Source: a virus. From it: a DNA stretch of 64,000 nt. The number at the start of each line of letters is the position of its first letter. Within the stretch, counting starts at the first letter, position 1. Location: the IMG/VR virus record IMGVR_UViG_3300022074_000005; one strand, written 5' to 3'. Below are positions 47,886-53,962 of the stretch, piece by piece. A model generated the notes under the pieces. That model worked only from the letters and a program-made list of their open reading frames with translations. It was not told the origin of the DNA and did not search any database. Position numbers and translations under genes: made by a program.

Positions 47886-49082
47886 TTAGTAACCTTCTCT
47901 TATTCTTTCTCTTGTAATTAATTCTATCTCTGCAAAGTCTAAAGTTATTTGTGTCTCAACTGGTGGAGCACCTTCCTCGTTTGGTGTAAATGTTCTATAT
48001 CTATCACCACCATAACTCATTGTCATGTTTTCTAGATAACAAGTACTAATTTTTTGTAAGTACTCATTCTCTCTACCATTGTACATGTAAGCAATATCAA
48101 AAGTATTTGGTACTCTGAATTGTCTACCTGTACCTCCTACCATTTCTGGCACCATGTTAACTCTAAATGCGTATATGATTTTTCTTATCTCGTCTGCTTC
48201 TTCTTGAGATTTAGGTATCATTTTAAAACTAAATTGAAACTTTCTTTTTGCAAGACCTTTAAATGCTAATTCTAACCTGTCTGCTATAACCACACCTTGC
48301 GATGCCTCATATGCTTCTCTTGTTCCAGCAAAACCTGGTAATGCACCAATTGTTCCTAGTGCTGCTGTTTGCATAGTCTCTGATAACGCACCACCTAAAT
48401 TATCTAATGCGTTTTTAGTAACAGTACCAATATCTGTACCTGCCCTTACTTGGTCAAAAGCTTGCATACCTAATCTCGCACCAGCACCAATAGGTGTGTC
48501 TGCATAATCTGCTCTCGTAAAGTAGTTTGCACTAGGTGGCATGTATAAAGCAATCGCTGTATCTAATCTAACTGTTGGTGCTCTGTCAATGTATGCGTTG
48601 TATCCACCTTTGTAGTTTGTTGGCTGTTTTGTTTCATATCTAAAACCTGAGTCTGATTGATGACTTAAATTTAATTGTTCGTTAATGCCACTTGTATTAT
48701 TTGTTTTAGTTCTTACGTTACTATTTGGGTTTAATCTTGTAATATATTTTGGTATGTTTGCATTTTTCTTAGCTCTCTCAGCATCGGTCATTGCGTTACC
48801 ACTTCCACCACCAAACTTTAGTTCTGCACCTGCTTGTTCATTGATATAGAACATAACATAATGTCCTTGATTACCGACTCCTGGTCCACCTTCTACGTCT
48901 AATGGGAATGAAAAGTTTTTTGTTTTTCTTTTGCCAAATACTTCTGGTGGGGCAACACCTGGTCTTTGTTCATTTTTAGAACCAAAAACACCCTTTAAAG
49001 CACCACGTACTTTCTTTAATACAACACCAGACGCCGTTGAAACAACTGCACCCCCTATTGTAGATTTACTGAAAAAAGCCAT
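47886..49082 (-). CDS. gp48: baseplate tail tube cap
   Basis: IALYMP, RKFQFSFKMIPKSQEEA, ITLDFAEIELITRE. Confidence 0.88.
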   Translation of the reverse strand: MAFFSKSTIGGAVVSTASGVVLKKVRGALKGVFGSKNEQRPGVAPPEVFGKRKTKNFSFPLDVEGGPGVGNQGHYVMFYINEQAGAELKFGGGSGNAMTDAERAKKNANIPKYITRLNPNSNVRTKTNNTSGINEQLNLSHQSDSGFRYETKQPTNYKGGYNAYIDRAPTVRLDTAIALYMPPSANYFTRADYADTPIGAGARLGMQAFDQVRAGTDIGTVTKNALDNLGGALSETMQTAALGTIGALPGFAGTREAYEASQGVVIADRLELAFKGLAKRKFQFSFKMIPKSQEEADEIRKIIYAFRVNMVPEMVGGTGRQFRVPNTFDIAYMYNGRENEYLQKISTCYLENMTMSYGGDRYRTFTPNEEGAPPVETQITLDFAEIELITRERIREGY

Positions 49083-49129: not shown

Positions 49130-49576
49130 ATGGCATATAGTGGTCGATTTAAACCATCCAATCCTATAAAATACAAAGGTAACCCCATGAAGATTATATA
49201 TCGTTCTACATGGGAACTTAAACTTATGAAGTACTGCGACAATACAAAAGCGATTATTGAGTGGGGTAGTGAAGAAATATCAATACCATACTACTCACCA
49301 ATTGATGGCAAAATGCATAGGTACTTCCCTGACTTTTACATGAAAGTTAGACAAAAAGATAGAACAATAAAAAAATTTATAATAGAAGTTAAACCAAAGA
49401 AAGATTTAAAGGCACCAAGTGCAAATCCTAAACGTAGAACTAGACAGTGGTTTGTGTCATGTAAGACTTTTATCATAAACAAAGCAAAGTTTAGATATGC
49501 TGAGGAATACTGCACTAATAATGGTCTAGAATTCAAGATACTTACGGAAGACCATCTACAACCCAAGTATAAATAA
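49130..49576 (+). CDS. gp4: head completion nuclease-like protein
   Basis: YSGRFKPSNPIKYKG, YRSTWE, WGSEE, HRYFPDF, IEVKP. Confidence 0.93.
   Translation: MAYSGRFKPSNPIKYKGNPMKIIYRSTWELKLMKYCDNTKAIIEWGSEEISIPYYSPIDGKMHRYFPDFYMKVRQKDRTIKKFIIEVKPKKDLKAPSANPKRRTRQWFVSCKTFIINKAKFRYAEEYCTNNGLEFKILTEDHLQPKYK
49568..49575 (+). promoter_or_regulatory. T4-type late promoter for gp2
   Basis: TATAAATA overlapping gp4 stop. Confidence 0.65.
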
Positions 49577-49581
49577 TACAT

Positions 49582-50139
49582 ATGGCACAAAGTAAATACA
49601 TTCAAGCCGTAAAAGCTGCGGCAGGTGGAAAACCTAGGTCTACTGCATGGTTTCGTAATAAGATAAAAGAGTTTGGAACACCAACTCAATCACAACTTAT
49701 TAGAGACGGTAAAGTAACAGCAAGACCTAACTTTGGTAGATTAAATCTATTTGTATATGACCCAAAGATGAAAAAGGAACTACCATATTATGATACTTTT
49801 CCTTTGATACTTCCTATTGAAAAATATAGTGATGGGTTTTTAGGAATAAATTTACACTATTTGCCAATGAATTTAAGAGTAAGATTATTAGATAGATTAG
49901 TTGATTTTACTAATAATAATAAGTTTGATAATACAACAAGGATTGTTGCTGATTATAATAAATTAAAAAGAGTGAGATTAATAAAACCAGCAATAAAGAG
50001 ATATTTAAATGCAAAAGTTAAATCTAGATTTAGAAGAATTGACGCTGATGAGTTTACTATCGCAACTTTATTACCAGTTGCTAGATTTAAGAAAGCAAGT
50101 ATTCAACAAGTACATAGAGATTCGAGGGGAATGATCTAA
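49582..50139 (+). CDS. gp2: DNA end protector protein
   Basis: YDPKMKKELPYYDTFPL, GFLGINLHYLP, IKRYL. Confidence 0.92.
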   Translation: MAQSKYIQAVKAAAGGKPRSTAWFRNKIKEFGTPTQSQLIRDGKVTARPNFGRLNLFVYDPKMKKELPYYDTFPLILPIEKYSDGFLGINLHYLPMNLRVRLLDRLVDFTNNNKFDNTTRIVADYNKLKRVRLIKPAIKRYLNAKVKSRFRRIDADEFTIATLLPVARFKKASIQQVHRDSRGMI

Positions 50140-50855
50140 TGGCAAGAAGTTCTTTACTAGACGGCTTCGCATACGGAGTCTTAAATGAAATTATAGCAAC
50201 ATTTAGAGAGCAAGATGGTGGATACTCTAGACCAGCACGTTACGAAGTAATTATTGGTCCACCAAAAACACAAACAACTGAAACTCTTAATTTAAAAGCA
50301 TATACAGATTTTTTAAAAGAGAATAAAAAGATTGTTAGAAAAACTTCTCTTGAAATGACACAAATAGCATTTCCAGCAATGACTTTAGAAAGTCAAGAAG
50401 ATACAAACATCTACGGTCCACCAAGAAAAATAGTGACTGGTCAAACATTTGCTGAAGTAGCAACTAATATTAGATGTAGTGCTGACATGGCAGAAAAACA
50501 ATTCATGGATGCTTGGCAAAGAATAGCAGCTAACAGACATGATTTTTCTGTAGGATATTATGCTGACTATGTTGGTAACATACAAATATTTCAGTTAGAT
50601 CAAGAAAACAAAAGAAGATTTGGAATAGAATTAGTCGAGTGTTATCCAGCAACAGTTGGTGAGATTGCTCTAGACTATGGAGCAACAAACTCTATATCTG
50701 TATTACCTGTAACATGGGCATATAGATATTGGAAAAACTTAACAGATGAAGCAGAATTACCGAGACCATTACTTGAAAGAATTGGTGATGTGTTCGTTAA
50801 TACAGTAGAAAGACAATTAAGAAGTAGGATTCCTGCTGTTTTAAGAAAATTGTAA
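50139..50855 (+). CDS. gp54: baseplate tail tube initiator (gp54/gp19-like)
   Basis: SRPARYEV, YYADYVG..I.QLD, ECYPATV, VTWAYRYW; between gp2 and gp26. Confidence 0.78.
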   Translation: MARSSLLDGFAYGVLNEIIATFREQDGGYSRPARYEVIIGPPKTQTTETLNLKAYTDFLKENKKIVRKTSLEMTQIAFPAMTLESQEDTNIYGPPRKIVTGQTFAEVATNIRCSADMAEKQFMDAWQRIAANRHDFSVGYYADYVGNIQIFQLDQENKRRFGIELVECYPATVGEIALDYGATNSISVLPVTWAYRYWKNLTDEAELPRPLLERIGDVFVNTVERQLRSRIPAVLRKL

Positions 50856-50882
50856 TCGTTATAACATAGGAGGTGAAAAATT

Positions 50883-51593
50883 ATGGCATTACCTAAACTA
50901 GAAAACCCAACTTATACTTTGAAGTTACCCTCAACAGGTGAAACAATAAAGTATAGACCGTTCCTTGTAAAAGAACAAAAGATACTTTTACTTGCAACTG
51001 AGGGTAAAGAACAAAATCTAAAAGATGTTGTCAACGCAATAAAAGGATTGATTAAAGGTTGTACTTTTGATTCTATCAATGTTGATGAGGCACCTCTATT
51101 TGATATAGAGTATATCTTTTTAAAACTACGTGCAAAATCAGTAGGGGAAACTGCAAAAGTAAGTGTTTTATGCCCCGATGATAATGAGACTAGAGAACTT
51201 GTAGAAGTTAATCTTGATGAGATAGAACCAATCGTTGATGAAGGTCACACTAATATGATAAATATTACTGATACTATTAAGATTGAAATGGGCTATCCTA
51301 CATTATCTGATTTTGAAAAAGGTTTCTCAACAGATGATACAGATGCAGCTCTTGAATTAGTTAAGACATGTATTGGTACAATATCTGAAGGTGAGAAATT
51401 ATATAACAAAGTTGATTATACTGAAAAAGAATTAGACGACTTCGTTGGTTCTTTTAATACTGAACAACTTGGTAAGATTATGAGTTTCTTTGCAACTATG
51501 CCGACATTAAAAACAGTTGTAAAAGTGACTAATCCTAAGACCAAGGTTGATAGTGAAGTTGTGGTACAAGGCTTACAAAGTTTTTTAGCATAG
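50883..51593 (+). CDS. gp26: baseplate hub assembly chaperone
   Basis: MALPKL..PTY.L.LPSTG..IKYRPFLVKEQKILL, DIEYIFLKLRAKSVGE, FFATMP. Confidence 0.92.
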   Translation: MALPKLENPTYTLKLPSTGETIKYRPFLVKEQKILLLATEGKEQNLKDVVNAIKGLIKGCTFDSINVDEAPLFDIEYIFLKLRAKSVGETAKVSVLCPDDNETRELVEVNLDEIEPIVDEGHTNMINITDTIKIEMGYPTLSDFEKGFSTDDTDAALELVKTCIGTISEGEKLYNKVDYTEKELDDFVGSFNTEQLGKIMSFFATMPTLKTVVKVTNPKTKVDSEVVVQGLQSFLA

Positions 51594-51787
51594 GCCTTTC
51601 TCACGACTCTATAACGAACTACTTTAAAACCAACTTTGGTTTGATGCAACATCATAAGTATTCGTTAACAGAGTTAGAAAACATGATGCCGTGGGAAAGG
51701 GAAGTTTACTTGACAATGTTATTAGAATATATAAAAGAAGAGAATAGAAAACAAAGAGAAGAACAAGCGAGAAATAAAAATGGATAA
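51581..51787 (+). CDS. gp51: baseplate hub assembly catalyst (gp51-like); -1 frame relative to gp26, first ATG at 51644
   Basis: Open frame FFSIGLSHDSITNYFKTNFGLMQHHKYSLTELENMMPWEREVY...; not in ORF track. Confidence 0.85.
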   Translation, partial: FFSIGLSHDSITNYFKTNFGLMQHHKYSLTELENMMPWEREVYLTMLLEYIKEENRKQREEQARNKNG

Positions 51788-52097
51788 AGTAAAAGTAAAA
51801 GAGACCAGTAAAGAGTATGAAGTAAGTAAAGAAGACTTAATACCTGCCTCACCAGAGGAAGAGAAAACATGGTATAATCAAACTGCTGGTGTATTAGATA
51901 GATTTAGATTAATCCCTAGACTTATTATGTTAGCATACATATATGCCTTCTACAAATCAATCACTTGGTTTATGACATTACCAGAACCTACAAACTCACA
52001 AGCGATGTTTATATCAACTATCGTTGGTGCAGGTGCAGCTTTCTTTGGGTTATATGTTGGAAAACCTGGTGCATCACTTCCTAAAGGTAAAAAATAA
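51780..52097 (+). CDS. two-TM membrane protein (holin-like topology)
   Basis: RLIPRLIMLAYIYAFY and FISTIVGAGAAFFGLYV hydrophobic segments. Confidence 0.65.
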   Translation: MDKVKVKETSKEYEVSKEDLIPASPEEEKTWYNQTAGVLDRFRLIPRLIMLAYIYAFYKSITWFMTLPEPTNSQAMFISTIVGAGAAFFGLYVGKPGASLPKGKK

Positions 52098-53962
52098 TGG
52101 TCGTAGCAACTGGCGCAGCTGGAACAGATTTAAAAGACACATTAGGGTCTTTGACTAAATCTATTCAAAAACAGAATACTATGGCTGAAGAACAAAAGAA
52201 AAAGTCAGCTGCACAATCAAGAAAAAAACTAGAAGTTTCTGACACAAAAGCAAAAGAGGCACTTGATAAACTAAAAAATCAAATTGCTAACTCATCTGGT
52301 GAACAAAAAACACAATTAGAAGAACAATTAAAAGCTGCAAAAGAAGCTGCATCAATGGCTTCTATGGATTTAAAATCTAATACAGATGCAAGAAGTCTAG
52401 AACTAAAACAACAAAGAGAACAAACTATTATTGCTCGTCAAGCACAAGGTATCAGTCTAGAACAATTACAAGAAGATAGAAAAATTAAAGAAGATATAAC
52501 GGCACAAAAAGCTGCACTTGCTAAGTTAAGTGAAAACTCTGACTTATCTACTGAACAGTTGAAAAAGACAAATGCATATCAACAAACTCAAGACAGAATA
52601 GATAGAGCAGAAAAAAGATTAGAGAATAGACAGAATAGACGAATTCAAATGAATAACTTAAAACAAACTCTGTCATTAGGTAAGATGGTAAAGGGATTTA
52701 AAAATTTACCAAATGCATTTGTTGGTGGAATAAAAAAACTAGGCGTAGGTGCAAAAGATAAAATCATGAGTGGTTTAATGCCAGCACTTAAAACTGCAGC
52801 CTTTATAGGATTTCTTGTTGCATTTAAAAAATTTCTTGATAGTCCTTTTTATGAAAGTACAAAAGAATTTATAGTAAATAAAGTGGTGCCTTTCATAGCA
52901 GGTACATTTAACGTAATAAAAGATATATTTAAATTCTTATTCTTCAAGGATGGTGTTAATGGTATAGGATTAAGACCTGCAATAGCAGCTATCACAACTT
53001 TCTTTACTGAAACAGTTCCACAAAAATTTGAGGATGCCAAAAAAGCAATCACTAATTTTTTTGTTGGTGAGGATGGTGAAAGTGGTTTGATTGGTGGAAT
53101 AAAAGGATTCTTTAATGATGTAAAAGGTTTCTTTACTAAAACTATACCAGAGAAGATAGAACAAGTCAAGACAAAAATTACAGACTTCTTTACTGGTGAG
53201 GAAGGTATTATAACAAAAATTATAGAGTTTTTTAAATTTGACTTCGAATCACTAAAAGCAACAATTAAAGATAACTTTAATGTAGAGAGTTTTTTTGATA
53301 TAGTGTTTATGCCTTACGATGCTGCCATAAAAGCATTGATGGGTTTCTTTGGTTTCAACAAGGAAGATATAGAAGCGTTTTCACTAAAAGACTTGATAAC
53401 TGATACTGTAAAAAGTGTAGGAAAATTCTTTAAAGACATATTTAGTTTTGATAGTGAATCTATGATAGGTGATCTAAAAGGTAAGATAGCAGATATGGGT
53501 CTCATATTAAAAGCGATGACTAAAGGCTCCATCGCAGCTGCAAAAGCAATCGGACCTGGTGGTGAAAGCCCAGCAGAAGCCTATAAAAGAGTTTACAATG
53601 AGACTATGGCAACTGGCGAAAGTCAGTTAGATACTGCTGGCACAGGTGATGCTCAGATCGCAGAACAAATCGCAGCTGAAGCTAAAGAGGGCGGAATAGT
53701 AAAAACAGTAACTACATCCTCAGGTTCAGCATTCATACAAGGTCCAGGTGCTAAAGAAATGATAGCTGCCATGGAACGTGTTAATGGTACTTCTCAACAA
53801 TTAAATGGTGAAATGGCAGCTAACGCTTCAGGTTCTACTCAAACGCAACCAGCTGTGATACAAGTTGTTGATGCTAAATCAAATAATAATTCACAAACTA
53901 ATAATACAGTTGTAAGTAAAACAGTAACAGATAACGACCCTATTCTTGAGGCTGCTTTTTAA
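52097..53962 (+). CDS. tape measure protein (gp29-like)
   Basis: N-terminal coiled coil, central amphipathic xxFF repeats, NNNSQTNN C-terminus; after gp26/gp51. Confidence 0.7.
   Translation: MVVATGAAGTDLKDTLGSLTKSIQKQNTMAEEQKKKSAAQSRKKLEVSDTKAKEALDKLKNQIANSSGEQKTQLEEQLKAAKEAASMASMDLKSNTDARSLELKQQREQTIIARQAQGISLEQLQEDRKIKEDITAQKAALAKLSENSDLSTEQLKKTNAYQQTQDRIDRAEKRLENRQNRRIQMNNLKQTLSLGKMVKGFKNLPNAFVGGIKKLGVGAKDKIMSGLMPALKTAAFIGFLVAFKKFLDSPFYESTKEFIVNKVVPFIAGTFNVIKDIFKFLFFKDGVNGIGLRPAIAAITTFFTETVPQKFEDAKKAITNFFVGEDGESGLIGGIKGFFNDVKGFFTKTIPEKIEQVKTKITDFFTGEEGIITKIIEFFKFDFESLKATIKDNFNVESFFDIVFMPYDAAIKALMGFFGFNKEDIEAFSLKDLITDTVKSVGKFFKDIFSFDSESMIGDLKGKIADMGLILKAMTKGSIAAAKAIGPGGESPAEAYKRVYNETMATGESQLDTAGTGDAQIAEQIAAEAKEGGIVKTVTTSSGSAFIQGPGAKEMIAAMERVNGTSQQLNGEMAANASGSTQTQPAVIQVVDAKSNNNSQTNNTVVSKTVTDNDPILEAAF

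Follow-up and report, generated by a model that had tools for sequence, protein, structure and literature searches.

A gp26-like tail chaperone gene of an uncultured marine T4-like phage is probably decoded in two ways by -1 slippage on a T_TTT_TTA heptamer

In phage lambda, the tail assembly chaperones G and GT are made from a short open reading frame (ORF), which carries a slippery heptamer, G_GGA_AAG, close to its 3' end, and from a -1 ORF that overlaps it and has no start of its own. Xu, Hendrix and Duda reportedly described in 2004 that this -1 frameshift of tail assembly chaperone genes is conserved in long-tailed phages. The signal of E. coli dnaX (reviewed in PMC5009743) consists of the heptamer A_AAA_AAG, a Shine-Dalgarno (SD)-like element 10 nucleotides (nt) upstream and a 3' hairpin, and the slippery site of HIV-1 gag-pol is U_UUU_UUA, read by the eukaryotic ribosome in front of a defined 3' stem-loop. 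For the tail chaperones, Atkins et al. (2016) describe G-T frameshifting as conserved among long-tailed phages 'except T4' (PMC5009743). A review of the T4 tail counts gp26 and gp51 among the chaperones of hub assembly and describes gp51 as required for assembly but missing from the particle (PMC3004832). Here we analyse a stretch of 64,000 nt (IMG/VR virus record IMGVR_UViG_3300022074_000005; hereafter the window), whose source is an uncultured marine T4-like myovirus and in which a gp26-like gene (50883..51593, + strand) is overlapped at its 3' end by a gp51-like reading in the -1 frame. All elements of this locus described below lie on the + strand.

Vladimirov, Gautam and Davidson (Virology 2022, 566:9) are cited for T4-like chaperone genes, two-gene variants and poly-T slip sites (PMC10885494, PMC12846349), and the PRFect paper mentions that some T4-like phages have one short and one longer fused gene and no frameshifting (PMC10885494). 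As far as can be told from the papers citing Vladimirov et al., the essentials of our finding seem to be already published, and the site in the window appears to be a further member of an already described kind rather than a new one. A literature search for frameshifting in gp26/gp51 or in baseplate hub assembly, by those names, returned nothing relevant.

Judging by its sequence, the gp26-like gene probably encodes a tail (baseplate-hub) assembly chaperone that is decoded in two ways by ribosomal -1 slippage on a heptamer. We infer that most ribosomes would terminate at the TAG at 51591, giving a 236 amino acid (aa) short form that would be the counterpart of T4 gp26. A minority would slip back by one base on U_UUU_UUA (51581-51587), where the P- and A-site tRNAs would re-pair to UUU UUU, and would read 66-67 more codons in the -1 frame up to the TAA at 51785, yielding a long form of 301 aa that would correspond to T4 gp51. 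Like lambda G and GT, the short and long forms would then work together to build the hub and the tube around the tape-measure-like protein. The original prediction had proposed gp26/gp51 as such a lambda G/GT-like system, with forms of 236 and about 300 aa, and this proposal is supported by the layout of about 90 loci, by the colinearity of T4 gp51 with the 301-aa virtual fusion and by a match to the fold of the HK97 tail assembly chaperone (TAC).

What we observe is the signals for such a slip, their conservation in relatives, the homology of both coding parts to the T4 proteins and a chaperone-like fold at the N-terminus. The 3' end of the gp26-like ORF reads AGT TTT TTA GCA TAG, so that the heptamer T_TTT_TTA (51581..51587) stands in the X_XXY_YYZ phase of the gp26 frame, and the gp26 stop TAG (51591..51593) lies one codon past it. 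No stop interrupts the -1 frame between 51557 and the TAA at 51785-51787; it reads FFSIGLSHDSITNYFKTNFGLMQHHKYSLTELENMMPWERE..., and its gp51-like peptide sets in right at the heptamer. Both the heptamer close to the gp26 stop and this open -1 reading had been predicted; the former is borne out by the sequence and the latter is correct to the base. The extension itself (51584..51787), with 67 codons and the TAA, would form the gp51-like C-terminal domain of the long form. Taken from 51581, the -1 reading (68 residues) covers profile positions 56-120 of 121 in phrog_634 (gp51, 'baseplate hub assembly catalyst'), with an E of 8.8e-29. It also matches the end of phrog_150, the gp26 family (positions 231-278 of 282, 2e-6), whose profile reaches a length of 282 because the extension is in frame in some members. 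The predicted fusion is 301 aa long, with the junction peptide ...GLQSF(L/F)SIGLSHD, that is ...GLQSFLSIGLSHDSITNYFK or ...GLQSFFSIGLSHDSITNYFK.

Comparison with T4 assigns both parts. The gp26-like protein of the window matches PF12322 (T4_baseplate) with an E of 1.5e-60, residues 9-235 falling on profile positions 2-218 of 219, and phrog_150 at 2.8e-66 over profile positions 5-232 of 282. T4 gp26 (208 aa) is PF12322 alone, whereas T4 gp51 (249 aa) has PF12322 over residues 1-201 (3.9e-52) and about 48 further residues; phrog_150 spans T4 gp51 from end to end and phrog_634 spans its last 100 residues. By these matches, T4 gp51 is a paralog of gp26 that carries the same C-terminal extension. 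The alignment of the virtual 301-aa product with gp51 of T4 and of Aeromonas phage 31 runs through the junction ungapped (window GLQSFFSIGLSHDSITNYFKTNFGLMQHHKYSL...MPWERE against T4 gp51 ...IPAERG), the extension being colinear with the C-termini of both, and a single BLASTP high-scoring segment pair covers residues 13-287 against the Aeromonas phage 31 protein (E 2.5e-14). The C-terminus of T4 gp26 (...GLKEFFELL) falls exactly at the junction. The gapless alignment and this end point together identify the predicted short product as the counterpart of gp26 and the predicted long product as that of gp51.

T4 and Aeromonas phage 31 keep gene 26 apart from gene 51 and transcribe the two divergently; on this comparison, the T-even phages split the short and long forms into paralogous genes. 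The window locus is therefore like T4 in that both parts are homologous and one chaperone is predicted to come in a short and a long form, and unlike T4 and Aeromonas phage 31 in that these have two genes and need no recoding, whereas the window has one gene and a predicted -1 slip. A second difference is that CxxC motifs (e.g. CPKCG, CPECG), which resemble a zinc knuckle, are present in T4 gp26 and gp51 and in the proteins of Vibrio phage nt-1 and Stenotrophomonas phage IME-SM1 but absent from the window protein, in which the second CxxC site reads NPKTK. Weak Zn-ribbon Pfam matches fall on T4 gp51, and the clade of the window appears to have lost the knuckle.

The original prediction had suggested aligning the gp26-gp51 junctions of marine T4-like phages, and this alignment finds the heptamer and the -1 phase kept in about 90 loci from several phage families. 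As relatives we used 80 IMG/VR loci with gp26 homologues (44-98% identity) and annotated GenBank records; junctions were counted in the 77 loci that have a locatable gp51 PWERE motif, representing 54 distinct junction sequences. In all 77, gp51 lies in the -1 frame and T_TTT_TTN is in phase. The Z base of the heptamer is free (A in 49 loci, G in 11, T in 9 and C in 8), and the gp26 stop lies one codon past the heptamer in 73 of the 77, with TAG as the stop in 72/77. Prochlorococcus phage P-HM2, phages Mosig and Melnitz and six more cyanophages have the same layout, and so do Vibrio phage nt-1 (T_TTT_TTC GTA TAA), Pseudomonas phage pf16 (T_TTT_TTT CAC TAG) and Stenotrophomonas phage Mendera (T_TTT_TTC GGC TGA). 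Taken together, about 90 related loci from cyanophages, pelagiphage, KVP40-like phages, pf16 and Menderavirus show the in-phase T_TTT_TTN with gp51 in -1 in all but one record, which has five T, and in these loci the extension contains no stops.

Synonymous sites within the heptamer speak in the same direction. Position X is T in 65/65 distinct junctions and XXY is TTT in 65/65, against a background in these genes where 79% of NNY codons end in T and 83% of Phe codons are TTT. Unconstrained positions would be expected to have changed between proteins that are 44-55% identical, and by these counts the synonymous sites of the heptamer are frozen.

The record with five T belongs to Stenotrophomonas phage IME-SM1 (NC_054952 / KR560069; L085:4700-4790), in which the gp51 part comes to lie in +1 and a 280-aa 'gp26' with a nonsense tail results. 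We considered this +1 arrangement as a variant mechanism and rejected it, as the run of five T occurs in the records of that phage only: 14 related Menderavirus records have one base more, and Mendera (L093:940-960) has the junction given above. The T5 run is probably a homopolymer error or a variant of one deposit.

In many relatives, the heptamer is flanked by elements of the kind that stimulate slippage on bacterial ribosomes. On the 5' side, 34 of 65 distinct junctions have GGAGGG at a distance of 9 nt from the heptamer, encoded by the codons of Leu-Glu-Gly. The Glu codon of this element is GAG in 45 cases versus GAA in 5, whereas GAA makes up 75% elsewhere in the gene and, at the codon three positions further on, leads by 24 to 4. 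G is the last base of the Leu codon in 35 cases; elsewhere its share is 22%. The predicted duplex with the anti-SD sequence reaches -9.8 kcal/mol in 34 relatives. On the 3' side, the G-L-S and D-S codons make a hairpin that begins 5 nt past the heptamer; in about 25 junctions its folding energy is -8 to -15 kcal/mol. In an alignment of 61 sequences, 68% of the cells are paired, versus 30-39% in slid controls, and the covariation score of 0.181 was reached by 0/500 shuffles. One of its pairs is GC in 13 sequences, AU in 10, UA in 8 and CG in 6, in part through Asp-to-Glu changes that preserve the pair. RNAalifold found no consensus structure on all junctions, because the hairpin is present in only part of the lineages, and the count of the named structure was used instead. 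There was no trade-off between the strength of the SD-like element and 3' structure (Spearman 0.27 and -0.14). With GGAGG 9 nt before the heptamer and a hairpin 5 nt after it, many relatives show the three-part bacterial signal of dnaX, whose SD-like stimulator the 5' element resembles in both kind and distance.

The copy in the window differs from dnaX in its signals, which are limited to the heptamer, the stop close by and a longer candidate structure, and also in what the shift produces: the shifted frame of dnaX ends at once, while that of the window adds a 67-residue domain. Its only SD-like sequence is a weak AAGG (51568..51571), 9 nt 5' of the heptamer, the anti-SD duplex of which (-3.0 kcal/mol) is the weakest of the set and the function of which is doubtful. 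The nearby hairpin is abolished because the Ser codon is TCT instead of AGY. Further downstream, a candidate extended RNA structure with an irregular stem (51598..51679) starts 10 nt past the heptamer; the segment 51588-51680 folds at -22 kcal/mol with a z of -4.5, or -4.7 in separate shuffles, where it was the second lowest of 64. Its only close relatives (L004 and L005), about 96-97% identical to the window over 1.6 kb around the site, differ from it at a single unpaired base of this structure. With HIV-1, the window shares the identical heptamer, and the likeness stops at these seven bases.

The lambda analogy extends to the fold at the N-terminus of the short form. A search of the PDB with the gp26 sequence gave no match. 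We built an AlphaFold2 model of the window protein on 54 sequences from the fetched loci (predicted local distance difference test, pLDDT, 84; predicted TM-score, pTM, 0.78). Foldseek of this model against the PDB gave nothing below an E of 0.1. When the model was compared by VIA-align with 48,161 representative chains, the top match was the HK97 tail assembly chaperone (2ob9_B; Z 7.2, root mean square deviation 3.8 over 82 aligned residues, model residues 1-90). It was followed by 3fgx_B (Z 7.2) and the B. subtilis prophage protein YqbN (3klu_A, Z 6.7), all three falling on model residues 1-97. The ORF12 chaperone of lactococcal phage p2 scored Z 2.7, and unrelated rows had Z values of 5 and below, so that the three chaperone-type matches stand above them. 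Model residues 90-236 form a second domain, for which VIA-align gave no clear match. The model thus supports a TAC fold for the N-terminal domain, and this family had been named by the prior hypothesis. The window locus is laid out like lambda G/GT: a short ORF has a slippery site close to its 3' end, and the -1 ORF that overlaps it lacks a start codon. It differs from lambda in having no detectable sequence similarity, in a short form about twice the typical chaperone size, with its second domain at 90-236, in the heptamer U_UUU_UUA and in a 105-aa gene that separates the chaperone from the tape-measure-like gene.

Several points weigh against the account given here. The Z of 7.2 for the chaperone fold is moderate, in a range described by the tool as frequent among models that lack clear relatives. 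Shared ancestry means that the locus counts overstate the number of independent observations. About a third of the lineages lack both stimulators. The window copy has AAGG in place of a GGAGG-like element, no nearby hairpin (0 kcal/mol for the first 40 nt) and the extended 3' structure as its sole candidate stimulator. Moreover, a homopolymer is also what transcriptional slippage needs, and sequence alone does not separate the two.

One may speculate that the long form arises by several routes within the family and that this lineage differs from its relatives. According to this account, which we hold to be unlikely, relatives would use the dnaX-like signal, while bare U6A or 8-T copies would rely on transcriptional slippage, on the nearby stop or on a longer 3' structure such as that at 51598-51679. 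Six lineages (L015, L019, L023, L024, L030 and L034) have a run of 8 T (...AGT TTT TTT TCA TAG) and have neither the SD-like element nor the hairpin close to the heptamer; their longer run may stand in for the stimulators or may allow the polymerase to slip. If this account were true, the gp26/gp51 locus would be a natural series in which gene duplication (as in T4), ribosomal frameshifting and polymerase slippage solve one stoichiometry problem.

Transcriptional slippage, in which RNA polymerase would add one U at the T6 run, so that some mRNAs with U7 encode the 301-aa fusion in one frame and the ribosome need not shift, is the main rival and in our view quite unlikely. Hybrids of rU:dA are prone to slippage, every copy of the conserved element is a homopolymer, 6 to 8 T long, and the six 8-T lineages without SD-like element and hairpin would suit such a mechanism. 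However, most copies have only 6 T, while efficient transcriptional slippage in bacteria is known mainly at runs of about 8-9 or more (PMC5009743). The SD-like element, supported by its codon bias, and the hairpin, supported by compensatory changes, are ribosomal stimulators and would be useless to a polymerase, and the stop one codon past the heptamer in 73/77 loci would have no role. We prefer slippage on the ribosome because the heptamer is in phase, its Z position is free, ribosome-type stimulators are under selection in relatives and the nearby stop is conserved.

It is very unlikely that gp51 is instead made alone, as an independent small gene of 47-48 aa that starts at TTG 51641 or ATG 51644, without any fusion. 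An ORF with a start codon does exist (51641..51646 holds the first TTG/ATG of the -1 frame, the start of a 48-aa ORF that gene callers would pick), and many deposited genomes annotate a 'gp51' of 31-63 aa. These two codons are, however, the earliest starts in the -1 frame and lie 20 codons past the FF, inside the conserved peptide; the first 20 residues of the 68-residue reading precede every ATG, GTG or TTG. The 20 most conserved residues (FFxIxLSHDSxxNYYKTNF) would thus go untranslated. No SD sequence is found in front of the two codons (upstream sequence aaaccaactttggt); an AGGAGG precedes gp26 only. That the gp51-like residues come before the first ATG/TTG and that an SD is lacking there had been predicted, and both hold. 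In the relatives, 77/77 loci have no ATG, GTG or TTG at or before the conserved FFxIxLSH, and the first starts scatter from +10 to +28 codons. The annotated starts vary between phages, P-HM2 (GU075905) having a 30-aa ORF, and four records annotate nothing, leaving a 180-nt 'gap' after gp26: KU686192 (S-CAM1), NC_021072 (Syn30), JN371769 (MbCM1) and KJ019031 (ACG-2014d). Finally, in T4 gp51 the same domain is fused to a gp26-like body.

That the T run and the open -1 frame are mere chance or remnants of a formerly fused gene, with only the 236-aa protein being of importance, is scarcely credible: T6 is indeed common in the AT-rich DNA of the window (204 TTTTTT observed versus 212 expected, so that the heptamer by itself is no evidence), but the extension is conserved as a protein (the phrog_634 match), it is free of stops in about 90 loci and the synonymous sites of the heptamer are frozen down to 44% identity. 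What goes beyond chance is the protein content of the -1 frame, the in-phase T6 kept in relatives and the absence of a start codon before the conserved peptide.

Over short stretches, the DNA of the window is 63-71% similar to that of cyanophages, Pelagibacter phage Mosig and Methylophilales phage Melnitz, and its gene order agrees with that annotated in Vibrio phage nt-1. The PF12322 match was absent from the nearest record (G001, 13 kb). Upstream lie a gp48-like gene on the complementary strand (47886..49082), a 148-aa ORF (49130..49576) that occupies the place of the gp4 head-completion gene in relatives and is assigned by position, and a gp2-like gene (49582..50139). Directly upstream of the gp26-like gene is a gp54-like gene of the tail-tube family (50139..50855, + strand; 238 aa), which matches phrog_45 ('tail tube') at 1.2e-28; gp54 is found at the same place in Vibrio phage nt-1. 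The gp26-like gene itself, the predicted short form (TAC-N), is preceded by the SD sequence AGGAGG (50869..50874, + strand, read from the sequence), 8 nt before its ATG.

Downstream, an ORF of 105 aa with two hydrophobic segments (51780..52097, + strand) shares its first 8 nt with the gp51 reading and its last nt with the following gene. It matches phrog_10198 (2e-22), a family of unknown function, and Mosig and Melnitz have ORFs of similar size at this place. The following gene encodes a protein of 621 aa (52097..53962, + strand) that is probably the tape measure, the analogue of gp29, an assignment based on position, size and language-model features (0.94 to a PF25671 T4_Tape_measure cluster). 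The 621-aa protein gave no Pfam match, no PHROG match and no BLASTP similarity to T4 gp29 or nt-1 ORF206. Cyanophage equivalents of the protein carry the annotation peptidase M15 or endolysin. The original prediction had placed the locus in front of the tape-measure gene; the candidate tape-measure gene lies downstream, as a tube-family gene lies upstream, but it is not adjacent, the 105-aa ORF standing between the two.

The predicted recoding has consequences for annotation. None of the GenBank records examined contains a joined coding sequence (CDS) or a ribosomal-slippage join at this locus, so that gp51 of marine and many other T4-like phages would be mis-called or omitted, and should be annotated as a joined CDS with gp26. 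Vladimirov et al. (2022) appear to have raised these points of annotation and biology before, as far as that work is represented in the papers citing it, and the window adds one example, contributing the correct annotation of this phage and detail on the stimulators, with their SD-like codon bias and covarying hairpin, which would be facultative. For the biology of the family, the two decoded forms would remove the supposed exception of the T4 group (PMC5009743) to the near-universal pair of a short and a long tail chaperone. T4-like phages would then reach the same chaperone pair by two routes, either through one gene with a slip or through two paralogous genes.

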